A stretch of DNA of 10,334 nucleotides from a virus (Duplodnaviria; Heunggongvirae; Uroviricota; Caudoviricetes), in IMG/VR virus record IMGVR_UViG_2681813261_000016; one strand, written 5' to 3'. The stretch's first letter is position 1. Every line of letters begins with the position of its first letter. Under the pieces are notes generated by a model that searched no databases, was not told the DNA's origin, and was given only the letters and a program-made list of their open reading frames with translations. Position numbers and translations under genes: made by a program. Positions 5,357 through 10,120 of this stretch are shown piece by piece.

Positions 5357-5383
5357 AGGCGTCTACGGACGCCTTACTTTTTG
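5357..5383 (+). terminator. Rho-independent terminator (possibly attenuating) between the SSB and exonuclease genes
   Basis: Perfect stem AAGGCGTC (5357-5364) / GACGCCTT (5369-5376), loop TACG, tail ACTTTTT; starts 20 nt after the SSB stop codon. Confidence 0.7.
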
Positions 5384-5397
5384 GAAGGAATGTACCG

Positions 5398-6342
5398 GTG
5401 AATTATCTCTTCGTAGATGGCAATAGCCTGGGTTATTACCACCAACAATCTGACAAATTGCACAACGGCGAAATGGAAGTACAGGCTGCTTTCGGCTTTG
5501 TTAAGAACGTCCGTCGTTATGCCTCCATCCTCCATGCCCGACCTATGATTCTTTGGGATGGATTTAGTGACAAGCGTCGCGACTTTTACCCGGACTACAA
5601 AGCAAATCGCGACGACGATCCTGATATGAAAAAGATGAAGGAAGGCTTTGCTATCCAGAAGCCATACATCCTCAAAATGATGACCGCGCTTGGTGTTAAC
5701 CAAATCATTGCAAAAGATGCAGAAGCGGATGATCTGGCCGGGCTGCTGGTATCCCGCATGGCACCGCAGCCAACCGTTGAACACATCTATCTGTTAACAG
5801 GCGATAGCGACTGGCTTCAGTTAGTTCGCGAAAACGTAAGCTGGGTAAGCCTGCGTGAAGACGCCAAAAACAAGCAGGTTAATTTTGAGCAATTTGCGGA
5901 GCTGACAGGATTCGCCACGCCTCGCGCATTTTTGGAAGCAAAAGCATTACAAGGCGATAACTCGGACAACATTAGCGGTGTTGGTGGCATTGGTGCTGGC
6001 GGTGCGAAAGAGCTGCTGCATGAATGGGGAAGTGTCGCAACGATGGTACGCGGCATCAACGACGGCTCAATCGTGGTTAATAAAGGGCGTCATAAGACCG
6101 CCTTCAACAAACTAGCGAAGAATGCCTTCAACGAGAAAACAGGCTGTCGAATGCTCGAAGCGTTCAAGAGAAACATCACGCTAATGAACCTGATTGAGAC
6201 GAAGTTTCCGCCTACCGAAATCGAAACAATCAAAGGCAATCGTGACGTGAAAGCATTCGAGCAACTGTGCTACGAGCTGAATTTCCGTTCGTTCCTTGAA
6301 GACCTTGAAGTGTTTGTTCTTCCATTCGAAAGGTATTGCTAA
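5398..6342 (+). CDS. 5'-3' exonuclease / flap endonuclease (Pol I 5'-nuclease, T4 RNase H, T5 D15 family)
   Basis: FEN-family motifs: LFVDGNSLGYY, YKANRD, AEADDLAG, LLTGDSDWLQL, and helix-hairpin-helix region GDNSDNISGVGGIGAGGAKELL. Start revised from the track's GTG 5347 to the in-frame GTG 5398, which follows RBS GGAAGG (5383-5388) and lies downstream of the terminator hairpin. Stop TAA at 6340-6342. Confidence 0.85.
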   Translation: MNYLFVDGNSLGYYHQQSDKLHNGEMEVQAAFGFVKNVRRYASILHARPMILWDGFSDKRRDFYPDYKANRDDDPDMKKMKEGFAIQKPYILKMMTALGVNQIIAKDAEADDLAGLLVSRMAPQPTVEHIYLLTGDSDWLQLVRENVSWVSLREDAKNKQVNFEQFAELTGFATPRAFLEAKALQGDNSDNISGVGGIGAGGAKELLHEWGSVATMVRGINDGSIVVNKGRHKTAFNKLAKNAFNEKTGCRMLEAFKRNITLMNLIETKFPPTEIETIKGNRDVKAFEQLCYELNFRSFLEDLEVFVLPFERYC

Positions 6343-6608
6343 TGCTTAAATCGATTATCAATGGCGCTACAACCACCCCTACCCAACTGGCAAAAGAGAT
6401 TGTCTTTTATCACGGTGAATACGCTGTCATCGCACTGCCGTCAATTCTAGGCGCTGCCGGAATGAAAGCGACAGATCGCGAGTTTGGATTAGTCAGTGAG
6501 CAGGTCGTAAAAATCCTCGCTCGTGTATCCAGACTCCTTAACCATGATGCGATTTCATTCGACGAATCCGCCGCTTTAAAACGAATCAACGAAACAAAAG
6601 GAGCCTGA
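6342..6608 (+). CDS. Hypothetical small protein (88 aa), translationally coupled to the exonuclease gene
   Basis: ATG at 6342 overlaps the upstream TAA (TAATG at 6340-6344), preferred over the track's TTG at 6336. RBS-like GAAAGG at 6327-6332. No recognisable motifs. Immediately followed by the RecA gene with a 2-nt gap. Confidence 0.6.
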   Translation: MLKSIINGATTTPTQLAKEIVFYHGEYAVIALPSILGAAGMKATDREFGLVSEQVVKILARVSRLLNHDAISFDESAALKRINETKGA

Positions 6609-6610
6609 TC

Positions 6611-9246: not shown

Positions 9247-9702
9247 ATGAAGAAAGGTTTACTTGCAGTTGCTCTGGCGGCTATTTGCACAATGGGTCTT
9301 ACTGGCTGTGATCGCGTGGAGCCTGGATACGTTGGCATCAAAGTAAACAAATTAGGTGAAGACAAAGGGATTGGTGAAGTGGTTGGCGTTGGTCGCCAAT
9401 GGACAGGTCTTAACACCGAACTTTACGTATTCCCGACCTTCAAACAAATGAAGACCTACGACGAGCCGTTCACATTCCAGATGAGTGACGGTACTGCTAT
9501 TGGTCACAAAATTGGCGTTGCGTATCTGGTTAATCGTGACAAGGTAACGACGGTGTTCCAGACCTATCGCAAAGGCGTAGACGATATCACCGAATCAGAT
9601 CTGCGTCAGAAAATTGCCGACTCTCTAAACCGTTTGGCCAGCCGTATGACCACTGACTCATTTATCGACGGTGGTAAGGCACAATTGCTGGACACGCACT
9701 GA
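9247..9702 (+). CDS. SPFH/band-7 (stomatin/HflC-like) lipoprotein, N-terminal portion, ending at a frameshift
   Basis: Lipoprotein signal peptide with lipobox LTGC (MKKGLLAVALAAICTMGLTGC); following sequence (VEPGYVGIKVNKLGE ... VTTVFQTYRKG) resembles the first half of an SPFH domain. RBS AGGAG at 9233-9237. Terminates at TGA 9700-9702 mid-domain. Confidence 0.6.
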   Translation: MKKGLLAVALAAICTMGLTGCDRVEPGYVGIKVNKLGEDKGIGEVVGVGRQWTGLNTELYVFPTFKQMKTYDEPFTFQMSDGTAIGHKIGVAYLVNRDKVTTVFQTYRKGVDDITESDLRQKIADSLNRLASRMTTDSFIDGGKAQLLDTH

Positions 9703-9719
9703 AAGATATTCAGAAAGAG

Positions 9720-10076
9720 ATGTCTCCGGTTGGTATTGAGGTACTGAGCCTGTCATGGGTTGGAAAGCCTGATTACCCAAAAACCGTCATTGAATCTATT
9801 AACGCCAAAGTAACGGCTAACCAGCGTACTCTGCAACGTCAGCAGGAAGTCGAACAACGTAAAGCTGAGGCGAATATGCTACGTGAACAGGCTAATGGTG
9901 AAGCTGATGCTATCCGTGCTCGTGCGCAAGCAGAAGCAGACGCCATTCGTCTGCGCGGTGAAGCTCTGCGTCAAAACCCGAACGTTATGGAGCTGGAAGC
10001 CATCAATAAATGGAATGGCCAGTTACCGCAGTACATGACTCAAGGGGCTAACACTCCTTTCATTACAGTGAAATAA
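9720..10076 (+). CDS. SPFH/band-7 domain, C-terminal portion (continuation of 9247-9702 in the -1 frame)
   Basis: Sequence VGIEVLSLSWVGKPDYPKTVIESINAKVTANQR followed by an Ala/Glu/Arg-rich helix (EADAIRARAQAEADAIRLRGEAL) matches the second half of SPFH domains. The frame is open from 9678, upstream of the annotated ATG. It has its own possible start (ATG 9720 after AAAGAG). Confidence 0.55.
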   Translation: MSPVGIEVLSLSWVGKPDYPKTVIESINAKVTANQRTLQRQQEVEQRKAEANMLREQANGEADAIRARAQAEADAIRLRGEALRQNPNVMELEAINKWNGQLPQYMTQGANTPFITVK

Positions 10077-10094
10077 CTCTCTTTAAGAAGATCA

Positions 10095-10120
10095 GGCGTC
10101 CAGTTGGACGCCGTTTTATT
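10095..10120 (+). terminator. Rho-independent terminator downstream of the SPFH gene
   Basis: Stem GGCGTCC (10095-10101) / GGACGCC (10106-10112), loop AGTT, tail GTTTTATT; 18 nt after the stop at 10076. Confidence 0.7.

Follow-up and report, generated by a model that had tools for sequence, protein, structure and literature searches.

Why should three neighbouring hairpins in one viral element be built on the same stem? The question is raised by a 10,334-nucleotide stretch of DNA (IMG/VR record IMGVR_UViG_2681813261_000016, from a virus of the Caudoviricetes), the whole of which we refer to as the window. A first-pass annotation, made from the sequence alone, had noticed three hairpins with a common GGCGTC/GACGCC stem. 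They come after the genes for a gp32-like single-strand DNA-binding protein (SSB), RecA and an SPFH/Band 7 lipoprotein, and we call them hp1, hp2 and hp3. The annotation offered two explanations for the re-use of the stem, a propagated terminator cassette or a structure recognised by a specific factor. The sequence of the window matches that of Escherichia phage PhiR41_1 (PV340561.1, 92189-102318) with 97% identity and that of Salmonella phage SSU5 with 82%, and 1,148 plasmid records in PLSDB match the segment, their hosts being Escherichia, Klebsiella, Yersinia, Salmonella and Enterobacter. These matches mark the window as part of an SSU5-like phage-plasmid, its module for replication and recombination. 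The answer we favour, and think likely, is that the three hairpins are paralogous intrinsic terminators, that hp1 is an attenuator within an operon, and that hp2 and hp3 serve in addition as the recombination end points of a moron-like cassette.

One stem at three sites

The hairpins lie where the first-pass annotation had put them, within slightly wider limits (Table 1), and each has the anatomy of an intrinsic terminator. The stems are G+C-rich, 11, 9 and 7 bp long in hp1, hp2 and hp3, and enclose loops of 4, 3 and 4 nt. Folded as 56-nt RNAs they reach -22.2, -20.6 and -16.6 kcal/mol, with z-scores against shuffled sequences of -4.5, -5.7 and -3.8. The loop of hp1, C(UACG)G, is a UNCG tetraloop, and its right arm reads GACGCCUUACU in the RNA. 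Each hairpin starts shortly after a stop codon (16 nt after that of SSB, 5 nt after that of RecA, 19 nt after that of the SPFH gene). All three are co-oriented with the genes and have their T-runs on the coding strand only. The claim that each is followed by a T-run stands for hp1 (U5 in the transcript) and hp2 (U6); at hp3 the tail is weak in the window (GUUUUAUU) but is U6 in most relatives.

Table 1. Genes, hairpins and promoter-like elements of the window
Feature	Position	Strand	Sequence or basis
DnaE-type polymerase gene	117-3635	+	
Terminator-like hairpin after the polymerase gene (comparator)	3641-3665	+	AAACATGGCC-TCTAT-GGCCATGTTT
Small protein gene, UvsY by phage Cyrano annotation	3760-4191	+	
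gp32-like SSB gene, closed by hp1	4309-5337	+	Pfam gp32, E = 1.6e-66
hp1, SSB-exonuclease hairpin	5353-5378, U-run to 5382	+	AGTAAGGCGTC-TACG-GACGCCTTACT, 11 bp, T5
5'-3' exonuclease gene, GTG start	5398-6342	+	Pfam 5_3_exonuc_N
Small ORF, 88 aa	6342-6608	+	
RecA gene with intein	6611-8950	+	Pfam RecA, Intein_splicing, LAGLIDADG_3
hp2, hairpin after RecA, left direct repeat	8955-8975, T-run to 8979	+	AAGGCGTCC-ACA-GGACGCCTT, 9 bp, T6
Promoter-like site, directly after hp2	8985-9013	+	TTGAAA-17-TATTAT; best sigma-70 match in the window, 10/12, consensus match only
Palindrome over promoter spacer and -10 hexamer	8995-9010	+	ATAAGTA-CT-TACTTAT; sequence
Cassette cargo, 66-aa membrane ORF and SPFH/Band 7 lipoprotein gene	9043-10076	+	
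66-aa membrane ORF	9043-9243	+	
SPFH/Band 7 lipoprotein gene	9247-10076	+	Pfam Band_7
hp3, hairpin after the SPFH gene, right direct repeat	10095-10112, tail to 10120	+	GGCGTCC-AGTT-GGACGCC, 7 bp, then GTTTTATT

Could the likeness be a coincidence, G+C-rich terminator stems being drawn from a small sequence space in which convergence is easy? Unrelated terminators do often overlap by 5-6 nt in their stems (in PhiR41_1 54 of 630 pairs, in a Moellerella plasmid 55 of 561). The exact palindrome GGCGTCC-N3-5-GGACGCC also turns up sporadically in at least 120 IMG/VR viral contigs. Those that are not SSU5 relatives are mostly high in G+C and have no T-run, and their copies of the palindrome look like chance; among the matches listed, from at least 120 contigs, we obtained neither a second family nor an estimate of enrichment. 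Within the window, however, there are three matches to GGCGTC-N3-8-GACGCC, a pattern with 12 specified bases, against 0.01 expected, and three were reached in none of 200 shuffles, which argues that the re-use pointed out in the first-pass annotation is not chance. The trio also has the highest stem similarities in its genome: among the 630 pairs formed by the 36 or so terminator-like sites of PhiR41_1 it comes out on top with 8, 8 and 7 nt, one unrelated pair also scoring 7. In relatives hp2 and hp3 have a 9-nt tail in common, TTTTTTATC, and the three sites are adjacent in one module, their identity conserved across subclades. Coincidence is already disfavoured on these grounds, and we regard it as unlikely.

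The re-use is confined to this module. In the complete genomes of PhiR41_1 (108 kb) and SSU5 (103 kb) the motif occurs only at the three orthologous sites, and the remaining 30 or so terminator-like sites of PhiR41_1 have other stems. The stem after the polymerase gene differs too, as had been said of it. Just three copies in each complete genome mean that there is no genome-wide propagated cassette; the notion of propagation survives in a local form, since hp2 and hp3 are direct repeats round an indel cassette and the three hairpins look paralogous. We also considered dispersed palindromes of the REP/BIME kind and known RNA families. The first we reject, since there are only three clustered copies; as for the second, a search of the full window against Rfam, with E values up to 1 allowed, gave no relevant family and a single chance fragment of isrG on the other strand.

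Related hairpins can be seen elsewhere. An unrelated IMG/VR viral contig of 46% GC (L208) has three copies of ATGGCGTCC-N3-GGACGCCAT, which appear to form a separate repeated hairpin family with the same core. In some of the relatives introduced below (L006, L043-L050 and similar) there are candidate one-mismatch versions of the motif, GGCGTCGCGTGGCGCC upstream of the polymerase gene and GGCGTCAGCAACCACGCC between uvsY and SSB.

The hairpins among relatives

What might such hairpins do? In the nascent RNA a G+C-rich stem of 7-11 bp would form just ahead of the U-run, and stem and U-run together would pause host RNA polymerase and release it. The hairpin left at the end of the message would then shield it from 3' exonucleases. 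On this scheme hp2 would close the RecA unit and hp3 a small moron-like unit with its own promoter, comprising the membrane ORF and the SPFH lipoprotein gene. The position of hp1 is different. Every gene in the window is on the + strand. The interval from the SSB stop (5337) to the exonuclease start (5398) yielded no promoter-like site, and hp1 lies, in agreement with the earlier suggestion, inside an operon-like run. Its U-run abuts the Shine-Dalgarno sequence (GGAAGGA) of the exonuclease gene, and the segment from there to hp2 (5398-8950) holds the exonuclease gene, the small ORF and the intein-containing RecA gene, the expression of which probably depends on read-through of hp1. Because its 11-bp stem is strong and UNCG-capped and no promoter follows, hp1 is most likely an attenuator and stabiliser. 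As a partial terminator that also stabilises the SSB message, it would allow the stoichiometric gp32-like SSB to be made in excess over exonuclease and RecA.

An in-frame GTG at 5347 (ATG in the Klebsiella type) would extend the exonuclease ORF upstream of its start at 5398, straight through hp1, and the longer ORF is annotated in the record of Klebsiella phage pJN2-26 (L006 9353). It has no Shine-Dalgarno sequence and is therefore probably an over-extended gene call.

For comparison the SSB protein led us to 80 IMG/VR loci, and further loci, from more distant relatives, came in by way of the exonuclease. An exonuclease-profile scan of genome contigs gave 14 loci, the source of the Yersinia, Kluyvera, Buttiauxella, Xenorhabdus, Morganella and Photobacterium contigs. 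To these were added the annotated records of SSU5, Cyrano, pJN2-26, a Klebsiella plasmid of 70% identity, a Moellerella plasmid and an Acinetobacter plasmid. Over about 90 related loci the arms of the hairpins are nearly invariant and the loops variable.

hp1 is present in all 84 close loci; the loop, always of the UNCG type, is UACG in 80 of them and UGCG in the other 4. Every relative examined, from Escherichia to Moellerella, Xenorhabdus, Morganella, Photobacterium and Acinetobacter, has a hairpin in this position, between SSB and exonuclease and directly before the exonuclease Shine-Dalgarno sequence. The stems differ. The 70%-identity Klebsiella clade has GGCGTC-UUCG; Moellerella, Xenorhabdus and Morganella have GGGCGCA-UUCG; one other locus (L249) has GAGGGAGAGC-UUCG and Photobacterium GUGGGUGGGG-GAAA. 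The loop is thus UACG, UGCG, UUCG or GAAA everywhere except in Acinetobacter, where a stem of AAGCCGC carries a loop of 7 nt. When the 16 distinct sequences are anchored on the tetraloop, 90% of cells are paired, a percentage inflated because the rows were selected with a hairpin finder, and 9 of the 11 pairs have changed on both sides. The observed covariation was reached by none of 500 shuffles, and no slid register comes close. The real evidence for hp1 lies in its conserved position combined with the variety of its stems, and by this comparison it is the most deeply conserved of the three.

hp2 and hp3 have a shallower record. We found 13 sequence variants of hp2 in 72 loci, with arms nearly invariant and at least ten loops (ACA, ATT, GAAT, GTT, ACTT, AAAC, ATA, ACT, AGTA and AGT), and hp3 is conserved in 41 loci with a loop of AGTT or ACTT. 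Pairing is kept through compensatory changes at hp2, as it is at hp1. The hp2 of Yersinia pestis pMT1 type is AAGGCGCCC-ATT-GGGCGCCTT, a compensated GGCGCCC/GGGCGCC in which U-A has become C-G, and two loci (L072/L073) hold a U.G intermediate. A U.G to C-G compensatory stem change is also found in the 70%-identity Klebsiella clade. In the pMT1-type and L072/L073 genomes hp1 and hp3 are unchanged. The RecA site is occupied by unrelated hairpins in the 70%-identity Klebsiella clade, Morganella and pJN2-26.

Several observations weigh against the view that the trio are paralogous terminators with hp1 as an attenuator. A literature search found no usable terminator or RNA 3'-end mapping in SSU5-like elements, and termination and attenuation are what we infer from the anatomy. 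Several distant relatives have a degenerate U-run after hp1 (AUUUAUU, UUAUCUUU, AUUCCUUC), and the U-run of hp3 is poor in the window, so the hairpin is better conserved than the terminator tail. A hairpin that outlasts its tail suits a terminator no better than it would a stabiliser or a barrier to processing. Then there is the likeness of hp1 to its neighbours, for which no recombination product accounts. The stretch common to hp1 and hp2 is AAGGCGTC in the Escherichia/Salmonella clade and the 9-nt AAGGGCGCA in Xenorhabdus hominickii. Within a genome hp1 and hp2 thus seem more alike than either is across clades, for which simple descent is not an easy explanation, and this hints at gene conversion or a shared constraint. 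Concerted evolution is only suggestive, because just two clades are involved and the similarity in Moellerella is ordinary: a census of the whole plasmid pW1-b found that the orthologous three share GGCGC or GGGCGC, overlaps of 5-6 nt that are not outliers there.

These last points lead to a bolder proposal, that the hairpins are 'linker' repeats kept alike by gene conversion or by a co-evolving factor and serve as exchange points at which the element's own gp32/UvsY/RecA-type recombination shuffles or excises modules. If true, it would explain why the hp1/hp2 stem is GGCGTC in Escherichia/Salmonella and AAGGGCGCA in Xenorhabdus. We think it improbable.

What of a specific factor? The stem would then be a recognition element for an RNA-binding protein, antiterminator or processing nuclease, of phage or host, that co-regulates the SSB, RecA and SPFH transcripts. 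Near-invariant arms over about 90 loci with drifting loops and flanks, a trio unique in its genome and restricted to one functional module, and hp1/hp2 stems shared within genomes in two separate clades yet different in sequence are all what such a factor might produce. Hairpin-binding proteins, however, mostly read loops or bulges, as in lambda N-boxB and the MS2 coat protein. Here the loops are conserved neither at hp2 nor between sites, and the helices are perfect, without a bulge, so that a protein-recognised hairpin of the boxB/nut or MS2-operator type can be set aside. Individual sites tolerate compensatory changes and G.U intermediates without any change at the others, hp2 has been replaced altogether in three lineages, and Rfam has no match. 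Selection on pairing alone predicts a near-invariant 7-bp stem at this divergence. Nothing points to the factor that the first-pass annotation had envisaged, and we hold it to be quite improbable. We return, then, to paralogous terminators, and to the second role we propose for two of them.

The cassette between hp2 and hp3

In relatives hp2 and hp3 share both arms and the 9-nt tail (the T6ATC that follows hp3 there is the same as the hp2 tail), and they are therefore direct repeats of about 27 nt. Their spacing is 1,137-1,141 bp, and between them lies a cassette of 1.14 kb. The promoter-like site directly after hp2 is conserved in cassette-bearing relatives, and we propose it as the cassette's own promoter. 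Near 9693 the window's SPFH gene has one A fewer than that of PhiR41_1 (GGACAACGC against GGACACGC), giving an in-frame TGA at 9700; it may be a frameshifted pseudogene or the result of a sequencing error.

Presence of the cassette is polymorphic in all three close subclades. Loci with and without it number 26 and 2 in the Escherichia coli type (E), 13 and 8 in the SSU5 type (S), and 5 and 15 in the Klebsiella type (K). Loci without it retain one hairpin, and the junction lies inside that hairpin. In two of them (L011/L029), 99% identical to cassette-bearing loci, 41 of 45 upstream flank positions are as in those loci, the RecA-side flank and the loop ACA are kept, and all 45 positions of the post-hp3 flank agree, which places the crossover in the right arm or tail. 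In four others (L052/53/55/61) the RecA-side flank is likewise kept, but the loop (ACTT) and the flank that follows are those of hp3, which puts the crossover in the left arm. Two different crossover points mean that there have been at least two independent exchanges between the repeats.

Klebsiella phages and plasmids are homologous to the window as far as 8976, the last base of hp2, and for many plasmids homology breaks off about 20 nt after hp3. Could the stem have arrived with its cargo? Homologous pairs of membrane ORF and SPFH gene occur in phages P88 and phiP27 and in plasmid pRHB23-C14_2, where they are followed by other hairpins. Arrival with the cargo is thereby ruled out, and the shared stem belongs to the SSU5-type backbone. 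SPFH genes are found near RecA also in the distant Klebsiella and Moellerella clades, and for this reason deletion of the cassette in the close clades is more likely than gain.

We can now complete the proposal. The common stem would descend from one terminator, duplicated locally, and selection favouring strong stems would have preserved it. The repeats double as points of homologous exchange, a by-product that can be demonstrated: homologous recombination between hp2 and hp3 has removed (or inserted) the 1.14-kb cassette several times.

That the palindromes act instead as duplex or cruciform DNA, as operators of a dimeric regulator or targets of a site-specific recombinase or nuclease, with the T-runs incidental, is very unlikely despite their perfect symmetry, the mosaic breakpoints at or near them (at 8976 and about 20 nt after hp3) and the recombination end points inside them, because the half-site spacing varies by 2 bp (between GGCGTC and GACGCC there are 4, 5 and 6 nt at the three sites, and 5-6 nt in the alleles of hp2), which a dimeric binder would not tolerate and on which we reject an operator, and because one lineage has its crossover in the left arm and another in the right arm or tail, as in homologous exchange and not at a fixed cleavage site; all three, moreover, lie immediately 3' of stop codons with T-runs on one strand. 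Nor are they integron attC sites, which are imperfect palindromes of 55-140 nt with R''/R' boxes and extrahelical bases: ours are perfect hairpins of 18-26 nt, too short and without R-boxes, and their crossovers vary.

The surroundings hold further signs of mosaicism and possibly of regulation. Some 20-30 nt beyond hp3 (10133-10334) the sequence of the window parts from that of most relatives, another mosaic breakpoint. Downstream of hp3 most relatives (L018 and L004, for example) have a conserved palindrome, ATTATCAC...AAGAAAACAA-T-TTGTTT, of which the window keeps the first part only. Each promoter-like region of the module is enclosed by an inverted repeat or contains one: CTTATCATC/GATGATAAG at 3706-3744, TGATAGAT/ATCTATCA at 4196-4226 and, within the spacer of TTGAAA-17-TATTAT, ATAAGTA/TACTTAT at 8987-9017. 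A related motif, TAAGTAnnTAC(CTA), occurs about seven times in the intergenic DNA of PhiR41_1, and these repeats may be operators or phage-specific promoter elements. The intein in RecA (6806-8059), which has a LAGLIDADG homing-endonuclease domain, is present in only some close relatives (Cyrano and PhiR41_1 have it, SSU5 lacks it). The region between the polymerase and uvsY genes (3636-3759 in the window, 5134-6724 in L004, 5122-7098 in L005) is a hot spot for cargo: the window has a terminator and a promoter there and nothing else, SSU5 three extra genes, and Cyrano a HicAB toxin-antitoxin pair.

Comparison with known systems

Why does any of this matter? Clinical Escherichia, Klebsiella, Salmonella and Enterobacter commonly carry SSU5-like phage-plasmids, a group that includes Y. 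pestis pMT1. One of the polymorphisms by which such elements differ, presence or absence of the cassette, now has a mechanism at the level of sequence, exchange between two copies of a single terminator. hp1 is, besides, a deeply conserved structured element that probably sets the ratio of SSB to enzyme expression.

Intrinsic terminators include attenuators within operons, such as that between rpsU and dnaG in E. coli, and the stable UNCG tetraloop is reportedly typical of terminator or stabiliser hairpins in phages and bacteria. Our three hairpins resemble them in having a G+C-rich stem, a short loop and a U-run, on the coding strand after a stop codon. hp1 resembles the rpsU-dnaG attenuator in particular, lying as it does between a gene predicted to be highly expressed and downstream enzyme genes predicted to have no promoter of their own. 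Unlike ordinary terminators, three neighbours share one stem sequence, when the other 30 or so in the genome are all different.

A moron is said to be an extra gene with its own promoter and terminator, inserted between conserved genes of temperate phages. The membrane ORF and SPFH gene may form a unit of this kind. They are accessory genes between conserved ones and are absent from close relatives in subclades E, S and K, some of them near-identical; a promoter-like site, which is a sequence match to consensus at 10 of 12 positions, precedes them and hp3 follows; and there are homologues in the unrelated phages P88 and phiP27. The difference is that the cassette's terminator is a copy of the terminator at the insertion point, so that the unit is bounded by direct repeats. 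'Moron' is used likewise in a paper on the LF82 prophage (10.1101/2022.10.28.514194).

The closest parallel to the exchange points is with the promoter-early stem-loops (PeSLs) of T4-type phages, repeated stem-loop/promoter cassettes that mediate insertions and deletions (Arbiol et al. 2010, PMC2839356; Comeau et al. 2014, PMC4122927). They number about 50 per genome and are clustered in the hyperplastic regions of lytic T4-like myoviruses (PMC2839356). As in PeSLs, a stem-loop terminator stands beside a sigma-70-like promoter (hp2 and 8985-9013), and accessory genes come and go between close relatives by homologous exchange, with junctions that lie within the hairpin at two crossover positions. 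Unlike PeSLs, the repeats are not each coupled to a promoter, a promoter-like site being found after hp2 and none after hp1 or hp3; PhiR41_1 and SSU5 have three copies per genome, not dozens; the repeated part is a terminator stem and not a promoter; and the host element is a temperate phage-plasmid of siphovirus type. Repeated regulatory hairpins as shuffling points are in this way extended from lytic T4-like phages to a temperate phage-plasmid. Nothing here is new in kind: the locus is a further example of intrinsic terminators, of a moron bounded by repeats and of PeSL-like shuffling points, brought together in one module.

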